From Psammoneis japonica (taxonomy: Eukaryota): DNA of 64,000 nt. Shown here in pieces: positions 30,971 to 62,913 of this stretch. The notes beneath the pieces were generated by a model that saw nothing but the letters and a program-made list of their open reading frames with translations, was not told the origin of the DNA and did no database searches. Numbering within the stretch: the first letter of the stretch is position 1; each line of letters starts with the position of its first letter. Position numbers and translations under genes: made by a program. Location: positions 62,001 to 126,000 of the forward strand of contig QPGO01000061.1 of assembly GCA_008632985.1 (NCBI GenBank). The letters run 5' to 3'.

Positions 30971-32706
30971 ATGCAAACCGACAAGAAGAGGAAGCGAGTG
31001 GACGACGACTCTGGCAAGGAGCAAAGCCGTTCGCCATCAGTGTCCACTCACGAGCTCGAAGACTTGCTCAGGCAGAAGGAAGACGAGCTCAGAAGGAAAG
31101 AAGAGGAGCTCAAACTCAAAGATGAGGTGACAAAGCAGAAAGACGCGTCCTTGCAAGCCGCCGTGAAGATCACATGTGATCCACACCACAACGTTGACAC
31201 CTGGTCCGAGTTGCCTGACGTTTTGCGCAAGGACCCCATGGTTCTGAAGCAAGTGACAGCGACAGGCGAAATTTCAATTCGCCGGTCACAAGTTTCAGAA
31301 TCAGTGCTTCAAAAGGTGTTGCCAGACATGCTTGAGAACCATCGATCGGCTGCGCTCAAGGCCTGTGAAAGTGATTTCTTGAAATGGGTGGAAGTGAATC
31401 CTGCTGCGGATGAATGGCGTGAATCGGTGCCTTTGTCCTTGAAGGCGTTGAGACGTGGCACAGTGCAAGAAGCAGCGGATGCGCCCCTCTTGACGAATCC
31501 AGTTTTTGCCAACGCGTTGAAGGAAGGGAAACTTGCGTGGGATCGCATTCCAGCGCATTTGCAAGATGACGCAGAATTCTGCCGCCTCGTGCTTGACCCG
31601 AATGGAAACCCTGATGATCACCATTTTTCTTGCGGGTCCAGTTTTCACAATGTTGTGATGAACATTTTTGACCGTTTTCCTTGCCTTTCTGAAGATCGCC
31701 AGGTTTGGGAAAATGTTCCAAGCTCTTGTTCAACTGCCGTTCTTGGTCTTTTCCAGAAAGAGTGCTTGCCACCCTTTCGAGACCTTGTGGAACGTGCGTG
31801 CAAGGAGAACTGCAATCTAATCAAACACATTGATCAGAAGTCATTCAGCAATTTCGTTCAGATGCTGATCAACGAAGATGCAAACTGCCTTTTCCGTGCA
31901 TCAACGGAGTTCATTGAGTCGCATCAGGACTTCGTGACCGACAAGCTCAATGATGTGCACATTCATGATGTTTGTCGTGAAGACAAGGACATCCGCAGCC
32001 AACGTCACAGGATTGAATTTCTTCAAGAAAACATCAAAAGGTTCGCAGGGCGGATTCCAACAGACATGTGGAGTGGGGATTTTGGGGCGTCGTGGCTTCT
32101 CAAGGGGCTTCCAATCTTACCACCACATCCAGTCGAATGGAAAAGAGACCATGAGAAGCTCTTGCTGGCAGTGAGGAGCTGCCCAGTTTATGATTGGATC
32201 GTGAGATCGCTGCGTTTAGCCCCCGAGCAACTCAGGGGTAGTTCTGACTTTGTCAGGAAGTGATGGAAAGCAACCAATGTCTTTTTGAAGTTGCTTTGGA
32301 TAATTTGAGGAGTGGCGATTACAAATTGGCTGTTTGGGCAATGGGTGACCCATGTTTTCTACGCAAGTGGGCAGAGTCCATGCGGAGATGGCAAGAACGT
32401 TCATCCATCTGGGCACCTTCTCCTTTGTTGACGGCAGAGAGATTTGGAGAATGCCTGAGTCGCGCTAAAGAGGAAATGGAAGCTCAAGAGAAATTTGAGA
32501 GAGAATTCGCAGGGGCGGCTTCTGTTGATGCCGAGCTGAGAAGGATGCCGAGAGATGTTCTAACGATCATAGAGGATTTCGTGGGGATTGCCAATGGCGA
32601 ACATCTCCGCAACATTTGGAAAACAGTGAAGCTCATTGACGATGTGAGTGCCGCTGCTGCCGCGAACCAAGGCCGCAGTGACACGATGGGAGTGGTCGCT
32701 TCGTAA
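30971..32706 (+). pseudogene. Helical-repeat protein (DUF4116-like), copy A; frameshift at ~32255 and Tyr loss
   Basis: Repeats LPDVLRKDPMV, IPAHLQDDAEF, APEQLRGSSDF; ORFs 30971..32263 and 32260..32706 are continuous in the paralog at 62914; family call tentative. Confidence 0.65.
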
Positions 32707-34613
32707 TTCGCAGATGTTGTGACACAGGGGGAACCAGTGCAATGCTCGTTGTACAAAGCATTTGATTTTGCAGCGGAAGCCTGCTTGTGCGGATGATTCA
32801 ACGAAACAAAACATTGCTTTTTGTGCATCCTTTTTGCCAGTTCTTACTACAATGCGCCTCCCTTGCTCTTCGAATGTGTCCAATGCTGGTAGAATGCCGC
32901 ACGACTCCAGCCAAGTGAAGTGGCATTTTAAACCAAAAGGCGATGCATCTCACGCCATGCGATTTCCTGTGTGAGCATTTCTCTTTCGAACGACCCATTC
33001 GATCATGCAAGCAATCGGACGTCAAGTTGAAAGTGGGCAAGCAGCTGCCGGCAAGGTGGCAGCAACCACTCGGATGTTTTTGGGGTGAAGATGCATGGGC
33101 ACATGTCGTCATTCAACTTAAAGTGTCTCTGCCTCACTGATCGACCGACGGGAACAACTGCCGCATCTCTCACTTCAGCCCTTCTCTCACGCATCGGGGC
33201 TTGCACCAAATGCTGGATCTCTCATTTCAGCCCTTCCCTCATGCATCAGCTCGCACCGAATCGTGTTTTTGGACGTAGTCCAAAACAAGCTGCCCCATGC
33301 GAACAAAGTCAGACAGTTCCAGATGCACCTGTGCAGACAACCTTGTGCAGTGCATTCCACTTGTTGGTTCTCTAACTGCCAGCATGCATGTGTCATGTTG
33401 TTGCAACATGTGTTGCTGGAGATTGGATGCAATGGCAAAGTTTTGTGTTGGCAAACCAATGTTGATCATGAACTCCTCCATCGACTCTGGGGCCAACGGA
33501 GACACATTCCACAATTCAATCAAATGGCAATGGGCTTCCAGCGCCAGCTTGCGAACATAGTTGTGAATTTCATCTTCCCCGCCGATTCGTTTTCGAAAGG
33601 TAAGTGCCGCTGACATGCTCAGAAGAGCAGTGTAGTCTCTTGCACTGGTGTGGCAATGTCGATCTGCCAGACTTGTCATGGACGATGCCACATTGTTGGC
33701 GGAGGAAATCACGGTGGGTTCTGGGAAGATGGATGACACTCGAGCTGGGTTTGCCCAAAGAAAAGCAGATCCTTTAGGTGAACAGAGCCATTTGTGACCG
33801 TTGGATGGGCATGCGTCAATTGGGCCACGATTTGAGATGTCCAACTTTGGAACCTGACCCATTGCGTGAGCTCCATCAACAATTACAAAAGAATCGGGAG
33901 AAGCGGCTTTGACGAGTGTTGAGAGATTTCGAACCGGAGTCTTTACAGCAGGAATAGAGACAATGTGGTCCAGGACCACAACTTTGAGATTGTCCAATTG
34001 TTCTTCATCTCGAAGCCTCCCAATTGCGCTCTCCAGAGACAAAGTAAAGGCATTGTCTCCGACCTCTTCCGAAATGGGAAATGCGACTGGAATCTCGACC
34101 AAAACGACTCCAGCCTGTTTCGCGAGCCAAGCTGCTGTGTTCTTCACCATTCCGTGCGCCACGCTAAAATGCAAAAGAACATCACCCGCTTTCCATTCCA
34201 TGGATCGCAAAAGACTGTTTACAGCCGTACTCGCACTCTCCACCAAAACGACATTGTCGATGCCGTCTGCGTTAACATGCTGTGCAATCTCTTGACGAGC
34301 ATCCACCAGCATTTCGCGACACCTGCGTCTCATCCATGTGTCTGGCTGCTGTTCTTGTTCAAGACGCAATGATGTCTGGTGCTCTAGAACTGATTTTGGG
34401 CAAGCACCAAAGGAACCATGATTTAGATTGGTGCAATTCAGGTAAAACTCATTGTGAAGCAGCTTGTGGCCGAAAACAACATCTGAGTTGCTGTCAGGCA
34501 AAACTTGAGATGAAGTCATCATGAAAACAATGCTGAAAAGCAAAAGCTCCCTCGCGCAAGGCCTCGTGAGTCTCATGTGTTTGTTGAGCCCAGGAAACAA
34601 GGGCTTGGCTGAT
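31621..34613. repeat. Arm A of an inverted segmental duplication (partner ~60763-64000)
   Basis: Collinear reverse-complement match covering both genes and the intergenic spacer. Confidence 0.9.
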
Positions 34614-60794: not shown

Positions 60795-62371
60795 ATGCCG
60801 CATGTGAGGCTTGTGAGGACGCCTCATGTGAGAAAGCTTTTGCTTTTTGGCCTCATTTTCATGACGACTTTATCTCGAGTTTTGCCTGACAGCAACTCAA
60901 ATGATGCTTCACTCAGCCACAAGCTGCTTCACAATGAGTTTTGCCTGAATTGCACCAATCGAAATCATGGCTCCTTTGGTGCTTGCCCAAAATCAGTTCT
61001 AGCTAGAGTGGTCACGACTCAATGTCATTTGGTCGCATGTCACGACTGCATCCCAGACTCAGCTCTTTTCATCGACCCATTTGGCTGAACTCACAACGAA
61101 CTTTCACAATGAATTTCTAGACAACGACTTTCAACAAAGCGTCTGTTTGCTCTGTTGCCATTCACATTGCCACCAACCTCCGAGGTCTTGTCCACCCCAC
61201 CAAGCTGTGGGACTGTGTCTCGACTAGAGCACCAAACATCATTGCGTTTTGAACAAGAACAACAGCCAGACACATGGATGAGACGCAGGTGTCGCGAAAT
61301 GCTGGTGGACACTCGACAAGAGATTGCACAGCATGTTCACGCAGACGACGTTGAAAATGTGTTTTGGTGGAGAGTGCAAGTGCGGCTGCAAACAGTCTTT
61401 TGCGATCCATGGAATGGAAAGTGGGTGATGTTCTTTGTGTTTTAGCGTGGCGCACGGAATGGTAAAGAATGCAGCAGAGCTTGGCTCGCGAAACATGCTG
61501 GAGTCATTCTTGTCGAGATTCCAGTTGCCTTTCCCATTTCGGAAGAGGTCGGAGACAATGCCTTTGTCTTGCCATTGGAGAGCGCAATTGGGAGGCTTTG
61601 AGATGAAGAACAATTGGATGATCTCAAAGTTGTGGTCCTGGACCACATTGTCTCTGTTCCTGCTGTTAAGACTCCGGTTCGAAATCTCTCAACACTCGTC
61701 AAAGCTGTTTCTCCCAATTCCTTTGTAGTTGTCAATGGAGCTCACACAATGGGTCAGGTTCAGAAGTTGGATGTCTCAAAGCTTGGCCCAATTGACGTGC
61801 ACCCATCCAACGGTCACAAATGCTCTATTCTCCCAAGGGATCTGCTTTTCTTTGGGCAAACCCAGCTCGAGTGTCATCCATCTTCCCAGAACCTGCCGTG
61901 ATTTCCTCCGCCAACAATGTGGCATCGTCCACGACAAGTCTGGCAGATCGACATTGCCACACCAGCACAAGAGACTGCGCTGCTCTTCTGAGCATGTCGG
62001 CGGCACTTACCTTTCGAAAACGAATCGGCGGGGAAGATGAAATTCACGACTATGTTCGCAAGCTGGCGGTGGAAGCCCGTCGCCATTTGATTGAATTGTG
62101 GAATGTGTCTTCGTCAGCCCCAGAGTCGATGGAAGAGTTTGTGATCAACATTGGTCTGCCAACACAAAACTTTGCCATTGTGTCCAATCTTCAGCAACAC
62201 ATGTTGCAACAACACAATGTGCACATGCTGACAGTTAAAGAACCAACAAGTGAAATGCACTGTACAAGGTTGTCTGCACAGGTGCACCTGGAACTGTCTG
62301 ACTTTGTTCGCATGGGGCAGCTTGTTTTGGACTGTGTCCAAGAACATGATTCGGTGCAAGCCGATGCGTGA
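60795..62371 (+). pseudogene. PLP lyase copy B; several frameshifts and a ~220-bp insertion
   Basis: NHGSFGACPKSVL / EHQTSLRFEQEQQPD split by the insertion; LYSPKGSAFLW...RLSAQVHLELSDF. Confidence 0.88.
61003..61226. mobile_element. ~220-bp insertion of unknown class
   Basis: Absent from copy A (TTCTAGAGCACC); CTAG/CTAGAG repeated at both junctions; weak 10-bp inverted ends TGGTCACGAC / GTCTCGACTA. Confidence 0.6.
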
Positions 62372-62913
62372 GGGAAGGGCTGAAATGAGAGATCCAGCAT
62401 TTGGTGCAAGCCCGATGCATGAGAGAAGGGCTGAAGTGAGAGATGCGGCAGTTGTTCCCCCCAGAGGATGCAAGGCAAAGACACTTTAAGTTGAATGACG
62501 AGATGTGCAATTTCTTCGGTGCGGGTGCATCTTCACCCCGAAAACATCCGAATGGTTCTACCTTGGCTGCTTGCCTGCTTTTCGTTCATTGCATTTGACG
62601 GCCGATTGCTTGCGCGATCGAATGGTTCGTTCGAGAGAGAAATGCTCACATGCGAAATCGCATGGCGAGAGGTGTGTCGCCTTTTGGTTTAAAATGCCAC
62701 CTCACTCGGCTGGAGTCGTGCTGCATTCTGCCAGTGTTGGGTACATTCGAAGAGCAAGGGAGGCACATTGCAGCAAGAACTGGCAAAAAGGACACACAAA
62801 AAGCAATGTTTTATTTGGTTGAATCATCGGCACAAGCAGGCTTCCGCTACAAAATCAAATGCTTTGCACAACAAGCATTGCACTGGTTCCCCTTGTGTCA
62901 CAACATCTGCGAA

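Follow-up and report, generated by a model that had tools for sequence, protein, structure and literature searches.

Inverted duplication of a lyase and a DUF4116 gene

Two convergent genes, one for a class-V aminotransferase ("lyase") and one for a DUF4116 protein, have been duplicated as a segment in inverted orientation, as sequence comparison shows; the locus lies in a stretch of 64,000 nucleotides (the window). A duplicated lyase locus had been claimed in the original prediction and was borne out by the alignment of copy A with copy B: the ~3.1 kb segments 31621-34732 and 60750-64000 are 88.9% identical over 2984 columns, with 331 mismatches (242 transitions and 89 transversions). Homology to copy B is clear up to ~34620 of copy A and weak from there on to 34732; the arms of this inverted repeat are 142-771 nt long and 87-94% complementary. 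The features found are:

30950..32706 (+): DUF4116-domain gene, copy A; Tyr fraction 0.2-0.7%
31621..34732 (+): copy A of the duplicated segment, with the 3' part of the DUF4116 gene, a spacer and the lyase gene; TA o/e 0.18
33239..34732 (-): lyase A, class-V aminotransferase, open 497-codon frame; 4 Tyr (0.8%)
34733..38100: high-copy repeat, abutting copy A right at the end of A/B homology; TA o/e 0.14-0.27
59879..60321 (-): copy C, a partial and older lyase fragment covering aa 66-211 and facing B head-to-head; 70-71% identity to A and B
60750..64000 (-): copy B of the duplicated segment, in the opposite orientation to A and running past the window end; TA o/e 0.14
60762..62371 (+): lyase B pseudogene, carrying a 225-nt insertion, four indels that shift the frame and, at codon 241 (61599-61601), a stop (CGA>TGA)
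61002..61227 (+): the 225-nt insertion in lyase B, without counterpart in A; the word CTAG at either junction
62914..63999 (-): copy B of the DUF4116 gene, open over 361 codons and leaving the window; 2 Tyr

Lyase A matched the PF00266 profile (E 2.2e-13, 50.4 bits, cut-off 21.5), and its homologues are diatom proteins of 47-58% identity, named cysteine desulfurase, isopenicillin-N epimerase or selenocysteine lyase in their sources. The "lyase" is a member of aminotransferase class V (PF00266) and a predicted enzyme. Copy A of the DUF4116 gene consists of two frames, 30950-32263 and 32248-32706, broken by a 1-nt indel at ~32254; against the PF13475 profile the gene scored 23-25 bits, just below the cut-off of 24.9, and a protein search with copy B gave no homologues at E<=1e-8. 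The insertion in lyase B may be a small mobile element or a former intron. The high-copy repeat next to copy A had a summed contig depth of 2800-4800, compared to 33-38 for exact single contigs, and is joined in contigs from 34732 to 38101-38119.

The string pairs quoted in the original prediction were found in place, AGTACGGCTGTAAAC at 34231(-) versus AGTGCGGCTGCAAAC at 61379(+), CATTGTAGTAAG at 32854(-) versus CATTGCAGCAAG at 62766(+) and CCGCTGCAAA at 32776(-) versus CCGCTACAAA at 62844(+), and the codon pairs of A and B read as described, TAC/TGC at codons 97 and 367 and TGT/TAT at codon 317. CCGCTGCAAA has a further, unrelated match at 55284.

Loss of TA in the two copies and its direction

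TA is the least conserved dinucleotide of the alignment: 60% (A) and 48% (B) differ, compared to 9-30% for the other dinucleotides. Of the aligned TA, 35 are in copy A and 27 in copy B, with 14 common to both, and 30 sites carry TA in one copy only (18 in A, 12 in B). Double differences (CA versus TG) occur at 39 sites; the permutation mean was 3.6 and the maximum 10 in 2000 shuffles. After subtraction of the TA-linked (78 + 30) and CpG-linked (56) mismatches 167 were left, 78 transitions and 89 transversions. Since this residue is not rich in transitions, the TA and CpG contexts account for the transition excess. TpA/ApT amounts to 0.19 and 0.16 and (CpA+TpG)/(ApC+GpT) to 1.73 and 1.64 in A and B, respectively. 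The doubles and the single-copy TA sites agree with the reciprocal, independent TA loss that had been proposed for both copies, and the comparison suggested there, an alignment of A and B together with orthologues and a tabulation of substitutions by context, indeed gave a TA-linked excess far above the transition background.

By itself, a reciprocal pattern of TA versus CA/TG is symmetric and fits either direction, including a classical RIP-like C>T process that started from an ancestral CA/TG and made TA now in one copy, now in the other. However, the 39 CA/TG doubles are not derivable from any single ancestor by C>T alone. The direction was set by using 30 diatom-type lyase orthologues as outgroups. 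In the 18 columns with a Tyr majority (>=50% of the 30 orthologues), Tyr was kept at 2 in A and at 2 in B, a retention of 0.11 compared to 0.47-1.0 for all other residue types, and the replacements were His or Cys, in both copies at 15 of the 18 columns and in one copy at two more. Replacements of conserved Tyr in lyase A include Y100C, Y308C, Y317C, Y361H, Y449C and Y470H, among others. The predicted ancestor with TA was confirmed at codons 308, 317, 367 and 449, where the outgroups have Tyr and not Cys or His (29-30 of 29-30; 27/30 at 317); at codons 308 (30/30) and 449 (29/29) the triplet is TGC in A and CAC in B. Codon 97 (EFYLN/EFCLN) is not polarised by the outgroups, which have Leu in 26/28; copy C has CAC. 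Among the CA/TG doubles in the CDS that could be polarised, 14/17 came from TA and 3/17 from CG. As read from these comparisons, the change is from ancestral TA to TG or CA, independently in each copy after duplication.

The RIP-like C>T process is refuted by the Tyr (TAY) of the outgroups at positions that read Cys or His in the copies, and by copies that are TA-poor, not TA-rich; we give it practically no weight.

In both lyase copies the codons of conserved Tyr (TAY) were changed to those of Cys (TGY) or His (CAY), so that A and B are most likely non-functional. The open frame of lyase A is no evidence of function, since by the genetic code a TA to TG/CA type of mutation can make no in-frame stop and erases TAA and TAG.

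Decay of CpG was seen alongside, with 56 differences of CG versus TG/CA, ~3/17 of the doubles and a CpG o/e of 0.04-0.35 within the oldest portions of the domains described below. Its rate was ~9 times the background.

Target motif and rate

The survival ratio of TA depended on the surrounding word and was 0.92 for TTAA, 0.44 for CTAA, 0.26 for CTAG, 0.14 for GTAC, 0.09 for ATAA, 0.02 for GTAT and 0.00 for ATAT. The favoured target is, from these ratios, 5'-TAY-3' (next base T > C > G >> A), with TTAA spared. In the polarised single events (n = 30), the mutated strand had the more favoured next base in 19 cases and the less favoured in 6, with 5 ties (P = 0.015). Motif analysis by product gain is confounded by CpG decay. 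TA loss after duplication amounted to ~73% per copy, assuming that invisible parallel losses equal the visible CA/TG doubles, and the rate of TA loss was ~40 times the background substitution rate, a relative value inferred from the divergence of the copies. One uniform loss probability does not fit the numbers of sites kept (14), lost in a single copy (30) and lost in both (~64); the misfit would be explained in part by context dependence.

TA-depleted domains and TA-normal segments

The copies lie in longer stretches of TA-poor DNA next to TA-normal segments, and short repeats are present in both types of DNA:

3889..4008 (+): 127-nt repeat, TA-normal copy; 5 TA
13697-13818: 127-nt repeat, depleted-domain partner; 0 TA
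18731..18927 (+): 202-nt repeat, TA-normal copy; 9 TA kept
20432-23380: Mutator-like transposase frame, listed as part of the domain 21000..54250
21000..54250: contiguous TA-depleted domain with copy A; TA o/e 0.00-0.31 and CA+TG 1.3-1.9 per 1-kb bin
25338..25539 (-): 202-nt repeat, depleted-domain copy; 0 TA, the 9 sites now CA (4), TG (4) and GA (1)
54250..58000: TA-normal island, used as internal control, with an FkbM-type methyltransferase ORF and a 551-codon ORF; TA o/e 0.35-0.67
58000..64000: TA-depleted domain with copies C and B; TA o/e 0.01-0.17

In 1-kb bins, depleted DNA had TA values of 0.00-0.31 and CA+TG values of 1.3-2.0, compared to 0.55-0.75 and 1.1-1.3 in adjoining normal DNA, and at the domain edges the state switched within ~250 bp. 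The flanks of copies A and B are even more TA-depleted than the copies, and the DNA around copy C has a TA o/e of 0.01-0.03 and a CpG o/e of 0.13-0.2. No viral genes were recognised in the 70 window ORFs scanned.

A genome-wide neutral bias against TA that becomes visible only under relaxed selection, without any targeting, would agree with two lyase copies that are probably non-functional and with the few recognisable genes in the depleted domains. In the TA-normal segments, however, the non-ORF flanks have a TA o/e of 0.47-0.94 and the mostly synonymous codon-junction positions of six ORFs one of 0.59. Together with the sharp switches of state and one short repeat that has 9 or 0 TA depending on its location, this makes such a bias very unlikely.

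A sequencing or assembly artefact, in which a modified base at TA in silenced DNA is miscalled as G or C, could be domain-wide as the depletion is, and silenced DNA may plausibly carry modified bases. However, miscalling should affect a given site alike in both copies, whereas 39 sites have CA versus TG; moreover, the frames are readable and Tyr is replaced by Cys or His exactly at conserved Tyr columns. Two Logan contigs (1336 and 975 nt) from a separate pipeline matched TA-depleted stretches with 0 other letters, although they come from one and the same sample, possibly the assembly's own source. We regard an artefact as highly improbable.

Duplication as a possible trigger

The TA o/e at the time of duplication was reconstructed as 0.39 from visible losses and as ~0.56 if parallel losses are assumed to equal the visible doubles. 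This is close to the 0.50-0.59 found for the window's six TA-normal ORFs, and the segment was, by this reconstruction, roughly TA-normal when duplicated. Derived states common to A and B, judged against the outgroups and copy C, weakly suggest that part of the TA loss preceded the A/B split. At Tyr columns, the same replacement in A and B was found more often than a different one at >=50% Tyr (11:3, P = 0.03), which conflicts with the results at stricter cut-offs (6:2, P = 0.15; 4:2, P = 0.34).

These values bear on a repeat-triggered defence, in which recognition of homology sends a TA-erasing mutator to every copy and duplication would have made the lyase a target. Independent hits are seen in both copies and in the older copy C, the near-normal TA content at duplication places most of the loss after it, the high-copy repeat flanking copy A is depleted too, and every TA-normal segment holds ordinary-looking genes. 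On the other hand, the 202-nt and 127-nt repeats keep all TAs in the copy located in a TA-normal segment (9 and 5) and have 0 in the depleted partner, so that repetition alone is not sufficient, although repeats of 127-202 nt are short and may fall under a length threshold for repeat recognition. Further, the depletion spans domains of 33 kb and >6 kb that have sharp edges and are not bounded by the duplication, and the derived states common to A and B would place some of the loss earlier. The TA-normal ORF 19155-20354 draws ~90% alike contigs from the same sample, which also argues against the trigger, but these may be alleles or another organism. We therefore consider a repeat-triggered defence rather doubtful. 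The original prediction had held that an ordinary metabolic gene became a target once repeated, the hallmark logic of RIP; in this form it was not supported, because the copies sit inside domains (~21-54.3 kb and 58-64 kb) with flanks depleted more than themselves, short repeats were spared in TA-normal DNA and the chemistry is reversed, A:T>G:C at TpA and not C:G>T:A at CpA.

Proposed mechanism

The pattern is probably that of duplicated DNA lying in domains where a local process turns 5'-TA-3' into TG or CA, each copy being hit independently. A:T>G:C changes on one strand or the other convert TpA to TG or CA and, in both lyase copies, conserved Tyr codons from TAY to TGY (Cys) or CAY (His). 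The mutator may be an adenine deaminase that acts on DNA and, like TadA/ADAT, prefers a T before the A, as a preprint on Bigelowiella natans proposes (bioRxiv 10.64898/2026.01.13.699255). Targeting would follow the state of the chromatin or silenced domain and not sequence duplication as such.

Alternatively, RNA could be edited by an ADAR-type enzyme, reverse transcribed and re-inserted; a preference for U/T before the edited A is mentioned in the discussion of the same preprint. But each copy carries changes on both strands without long same-strand runs, whole domains including non-transcribed-looking DNA are affected, and the joint copying of spacer and convergent gene pair indicates a segmental duplication at the DNA level. 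ADAR also favours G after the edited A, which is disfavoured here. This route is hardly credible, and we retain a local process acting on DNA.

Comparison with known systems

RIP in Neurospora and other Pezizomycotina converts CpA to TpA, by which the DNA becomes TA-rich and AT-rich; it requires a cytosine methyltransferase of the RID/DIM-2 type and takes place before meiosis. The process seen here is similar in its dense, context-specific transitions, in hitting each copy independently, in disabling repeated and mobile DNA and in damaging duplicated cellular genes as a side effect. The direction, however, is opposite, with TA ancestral and CA/TG derived according to the outgroups, the copies are TA-poor (TA o/e 0.14-0.18) and repetition alone is not enough. 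Decay of methylated CpG is also at work here, as a second process that is the weaker of the two. The TA loss is not explained by it: a simple CpG model predicts only ~4 of 39 CA/TG doubles, and by the outgroups 14 of 17 trace back to TA.

TadA and ADAT2 are tRNA adenosine deaminases that act on U33-A34, and the anticodon loop of tRNA-Arg contains U-A-C. As here, T/U is needed directly before the deaminated A, and the preference for TAC/TAT resembles the U-A-C of this loop. TadA/ADAT are discussed as candidates in bioRxiv 10.64898/2026.01.13.699255; no such enzyme was identified in the 64-kb window, and an activity on chromosomal DNA is hypothetical. A RID-related DNMT4 without assigned function is reported in many diatoms (PMC9998398).

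The process matches, as far as sequence can tell, the TpA-restricted A:T>G:C hypermutation so far reported in one unrelated alga. In that work, Mettrop et al. (bioRxiv 10.64898/2026.01.13.699255) describe changes of TpA to TpG or CpA only, depending on the strand, in integrated viral DNA of B. natans and propose an A-deaminase. A>G/T>C changes at TpA were found here as well, and so were clustered, local stretches depleted in TA and enriched in CA+TG beside unaffected DNA. The hosts belong to different supergroup lineages, a chlorarachniophyte there and, going by the best protein homologues, a diatom-like stramenopile here, and the available preprint text makes no mention of diatoms. The targets in B. 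natans are an integrated giant virus and a virophage, whereas here they are duplicated cellular genes, among them an aminotransferase gene with diatom orthologues, as well as a Mutator-like element and repeats of high copy number. TA has been erased much more thoroughly here, with TA o/e down to 0.00-0.1 compared to 0.45 for the B. natans NCLDV region. A next-base preference (TAY, TTAA spared) is seen here, and the words "context", "flanking" and "trinucleotide" are absent from the preprint's main text. Mettrop et al. measured live mutation; here the process is known from sequence divergence in one assembly, not from mutations in progress.

In sum, new here are a TAY target with TTAA spared, a ~40-fold elevated TA loss and a segment that was roughly TA-normal at duplication. 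The TA erasure struck both copies of an ordinary enzyme gene, turning conserved Tyr into Cys or His, in a direction opposite to that of the fungal RIP defence.

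The duplicated locus

Two inverted duplicate copies, A and B, each carry a convergent gene pair consisting of a lyase gene and a DUF4116-type gene, and a partial older fragment of the lyase gene (C) lies beside B:

31621-34732: copy A, duplicated segment
33239-34732, minus strand: lyase A, open frame of 497 codons
59879-60321, minus strand: copy C, partial older lyase (aa 66-211), head-to-head with B
60750-64000, reverse complement: copy B, running beyond the window end
61002-61227: insertion of 225 nt, present in lyase B but not in A, each junction having a CTAG word

The lyase is a class-V aminotransferase (PF00266, E 2.2e-13) and its closest homologues are diatom proteins with 47-58% identity, annotated as 'cysteine desulfurase' in Seminavis robusta and 'isopenicillin-N epimerase' in Nitzschia inconspicua, plus unnamed sequences. 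The DUF4116 match of the second gene was weak, and a search with its copy B gave no homologue at E<=1e-8. Among the contig matches listed at 80% likeness, several lay over the lyase 3' end. The global alignment of A and B had 2984 columns with 331 mismatches (242 transitions and 89 transversions; 88.9% identity) and 16 indels, one of them the 225-nt insertion in B. In this insertion, three TAs survive, all within CTAG, and inspection by eye revealed no clear splice signals and no terminal inverted repeats. Copy C shares 70-71% identity with A and B. Just upstream of A, the 5' part of the DUF4116 gene is partially present once more, seen in tblastn (29608-30005; 33-47% identity) and as a direct repeat (29699-29831 and 31092-31224, 79%); the history of the locus is one of several nested duplications.

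Loss of TA between the copies

The change of 5'-TA-3' to TG or CA, i.e. A:T>G:C on one strand or the other, is called TA erasure here. All six strings quoted in the original prediction were located in the two copies and the three codon pairs differed as described. TA was the least conserved dinucleotide: 35 TAs were aligned in A and 27 in B, with 14 common to both, so that 60% (A) and 48% (B) differed, compared to 9-30% for each of the fifteen others. The partner of an unshared TA in the other copy was nearly always CA or TG. Furthermore, of the 84 places where two neighbouring bases both differ, 39 had CA opposite TG (CA/TG doubles); under permutation with base-specific substitution counts kept, the mean was 3.6 and none of the 2000 trials gave more than 10. 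Since a CA/TG double needs an ancestor one step from both states, this ancestor was TA or CG. The 331 mismatches comprised 78 in CA/TG doubles, 30 of TA versus CA/TG, 56 of CG versus CA/TG and 167 others, and since the latter (78 transitions, 89 transversions) had no excess of transitions, the whole excess sits in TA and CG contexts. The most diverged part of the duplicate is its end nearest to a high-copy repeat (34433-34620), where 20% of positions mismatch, seven CA/TG doubles fall within 187 nt and zero TA is common to both copies, which may be an edge effect.

Direction of the change

To set the direction, lyase A, and B read in the frame of A, were aligned with the 30 best orthologues. 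Of the 18 columns with Tyr in 50% or more of the orthologues, A and B each kept it in only 2; this retention of 0.11 compares to 0.47-1.0 for each other residue type. The residues (A/B) at these columns were His/His (8), Cys/Cys (3), Cys/His (2) and one each of His/Cys, Cys/Tyr, Tyr/Cys, Tyr/Tyr and Ala/Val. Codons 308 (Tyr in 30/30) and 449 (Tyr in 29/29) are TGC in A and CAC in B; with an invariant Tyr, the ancestor was TAC and TA was lost on a different strand in each copy. Fourteen of the 17 CA/TG doubles in codons 101-497 polarised to a TA ancestor and three to CG. The Tyr content was 0.8% in lyase A and 0.2-0.7% in the DUF4116 frames, compared to 2.0-4.3% in the six ORFs of the window with normal TA and 2.6-5.3% in the orthologues. 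The Tyr columns and the polarised doubles thus bear out the original prediction of a TA ancestor with independent hits in both copies, and the polarity proposed for codons 317, 367, 169 and 171 was the one found. Codon 97, which had been offered as a further example, is unpolarised, since the outgroups have Leu (26/28); it reads TAC, TGC and CAC in the three copies.

The same data exclude classical RIP, to whose logic the locus had been likened. Classical RIP makes TA, whereas the change here runs from TA to CA/TG, and the RIP index TpA/ApT of 0.16-0.19 points the same way. Processive action on a single strand was rejected as well, since the polarity of CA/TG alternates along the coding sequence.

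Target motif

The motif was derived from NTAN words surviving in 48 kb of depleted DNA compared to 13 kb of TA-normal DNA, both classes being defined by the observed/expected ratio of TA (TA o/e). Survival was 0.92 for TTAA, 0.44 for CTAA/TTAG, 0.26 for CTAG, 0.20 for CTAC/GTAG, 0.18 for TTAC/GTAA, 0.14 for GTAC, 0.09 for ATAA/TTAT, 0.08 for ATAG/CTAT, 0.02 for GTAT/ATAC and 0.00 for ATAT. Most words were fitted by a model in which the base following the A contributes a single factor on each strand (A ~0.96, G 0.51, C 0.37, T ~0). An analysis of product gain to assign the strand was discarded because it is confounded by CpG decay; instead, polarised events were used, for which the ancestral context is known at the 30 sites where one copy retains TA. 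There, the A on the mutated strand was followed by the more favoured base in 19 cases and by the less favoured one in six, with five ties (P=0.015). TAs surviving in both copies were mostly CTAA, TTAA or GTAA/TTAC. Word survival and polarised events together give 5'-TAY-3' as the preferred target.

Depleted domains and TA-normal segments

The TA o/e of the whole window is 0.21, but depletion is patchy:

1-4 kb, 10-12 kb, 17-21 kb and 54.3-58 kb: TA-normal segments (TA o/e 0.5-0.75)
21-54.3 kb: contiguous depleted domain of ~33 kb, containing copy A and a Mutator-like transposase frame
58-64 kb: depleted domain containing copies B and C

The TA-normal segments contain ordinary-looking genes (Acyl_transf_3, Fam20C, FkbM methyltransferase and three unnamed ORFs), whereas the remaining window has a TA o/e of 0.00-0.31 with CA+TG raised to 1.3-2.0. 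The switch at domain edges takes place within ~250 bp. With 0.14-0.25, A and B belong to the less depleted portions of their own domains. A neutral genome-wide bias was rejected: in the TA-normal segments, the non-ORF flanks have a TA o/e of 0.47-0.94, and the codon-junction positions of the six ORFs, which are largely synonymous, have a pooled value of 0.59. The process is therefore targeted to particular stretches.

The high-copy repeat starts at 34732, exactly where the homology of A and B stops, and contig joints run from 34732 to about 38100. Its summed contig depth, which is not a copy number, was 2800-4800 compared to 33-38 for exact single contigs (contigs from three DNA runs of one sample). 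Pfam searches of 67 further frames of at least 150 codons gave five family matches, one of them below the cut-off (BROMI_C, 19.7 bits), and left most of the depleted DNA without annotation. Four depleted stretches (13000-16000, 27000-30000, 51000-54000 and 58000-61000) are nearly CpG-free as well (CpG o/e 0.04-0.35), whereas other depleted DNA, including A and B, has a CpG o/e of 0.6-0.9; the two groups may differ in age, or be kinds of target that carry different marks. Tandem direct repeats were seen in the depleted domain at 25542-25897 and 25986-26406 (177 nt at 89%, 207 nt at 87%).

Repetition and location

The original prediction held that duplication itself had made the gene a target. 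Two short repeats argue against repetition by itself being sufficient. The first, of 202 nt, has nine TAs at 18731-18927 in a TA-normal segment but none at 25338-25539 in the depleted domain, where the nine former TA sites are CA (4), TG (4) and GA (1). The second, of 127 nt, has five TAs in the TA-normal copy and none in the depleted copy. Since these repeats are short and may fall below a length threshold, the idea of a repeat trigger is only weakened; the evidence leans to location in a marked domain. Contigs of the same sample ~90% alike were found on the TA-normal ORF 19155-20354 (19001-20334; e.g. 49 differences over 505 nt). Alleles, paralogues and sequences from another organism are all conceivable; in the case of paralogues, this ORF would be a repeated gene left unhit.

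Timing and rate of erasure

The TA level at duplication was counted from 14 kept, 30 single and ~32 TA-derived double sites. The directly visible TA o/e at that time was 0.39, and ~0.56 if invisible parallel losses are assumed to be equal in number, compared to 0.50-0.59 in the TA-normal ORFs and 0.18 (A) and 0.14 (B) today. Since the reconstructed level is near that of the TA-normal ORFs, most loss would have occurred after duplication. With parallel losses assumed, TA loss per copy was ~73%, i.e. ~40x background (3.3% per copy), and CpG loss was ~26% (~9x background). A reading in which most TA loss predates duplication drew on shared Tyr replacements: same and different replacements in A and B stood at 11:3 with the 50% cut-off (P=0.03). 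This signal fades at stricter cut-offs (6:2 at 80%, P=0.15; 4:2 at 90%, P=0.34) and the TA level at duplication was near normal; the reading was dropped. Copy C likewise gives signs of an earlier start of erasure: at 15 sites A and B are the same and C has the opposite product, compared to 3 sites that differ between A and B (P=2e-5 versus 1:2 expected), about half of the 15 being CpG-derived. The TA-derived subset stood at 7 to 2, with only 4 of the 7 on well-conserved columns. From these comparisons of the copies we conclude that erasure was likely active both before and after the split of A and B, and the larger share appears to fall after it.

State of the genes and open frames

Both lyase copies are probably dead, as judged from sequence, because invariant tyrosines were lost. 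All six disabling lyase lesions are in B (four indels that shift the frame, a stop at codon 241 from CGA>TGA, and the 225-nt insertion). The open frame of A is no evidence of function, since TA>TG and TA>CA create no in-frame stop and remove TAA and TAG; for the same reason, many long frames arise on all six phases. Besides having none of these lesions, A kept the outgroup residue at decisive columns 12 times, compared to four times for B (P=0.08), and this slower decay weakly suggests that A was under selection for some time while being hit. The DUF4116 gene is the opposite case, with a 1-nt frameshift near 32254 in A and an open frame up to the window end in B. Eight minus-strand frames of 150-552 codons at 42530-48249 gave zero Pfam matches, and the 552-codon frame (43469-45124) had no homologue at E<=1e-5; these frames are probably spurious, left open because TAA and TAG were erased.

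Discussion

A preprint by Mettrop et al. (bioRxiv 10.64898/2026.01.13.699255) is the only description found of the same chemistry. As outlined there, mutation-accumulation lines of Bigelowiella natans mutate ~1000x faster in the DNA of a giant virus and a virophage integrated in the genome than in the rest of it, with nearly all changes being A>G/T>C at TpA, for which the authors propose an adenosine deaminase. The process in P. japonica is a diatom-side variant of this TpA-restricted A:T>G:C hypermutation, and not RIP. A literature search at the level of titles and listings found no account of TA erasure in diatoms. RID-related DNMT4 enzymes are described as present in many diatoms and of unknown function (PMC9998398).

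A speculative and rather unlikely proposal is that diatoms have a dedicated genome-defence mutator, a TAY-reading DNA adenine deaminase that is sent to silenced or repeated chromatin and shared with Rhizaria. Such a putative deaminase would rewrite nearly every TA to TG or CA and act as a 'reverse RIP', inactivating transposons without the creation of stop codons, and cellular genes duplicated into or beside such domains would be destroyed too. If common to Rhizaria, the mutator would be an old branch of genome defence in eukaryotes that has been overlooked until now.

The locus is a clean natural experiment, in which the 30 orthologues of a conserved enzyme gene set the direction and two copies plus an older third provide a relative clock. 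The TAY motif, with TTAA immune, can be tested on candidate deaminases. For annotation, long open frames in such genomes are no evidence of genes, and profile searches may miss mutated genes in which Tyr has been systematically replaced. A natural targeted adenine-to-guanine DNA editor would be of interest to the base-editing field. If the interpretation of the locus holds, a targeted A:T>G:C mutator would exist beyond the sole alga reported and hit transposons and duplicated host genes, with near-complete erasure of TA.
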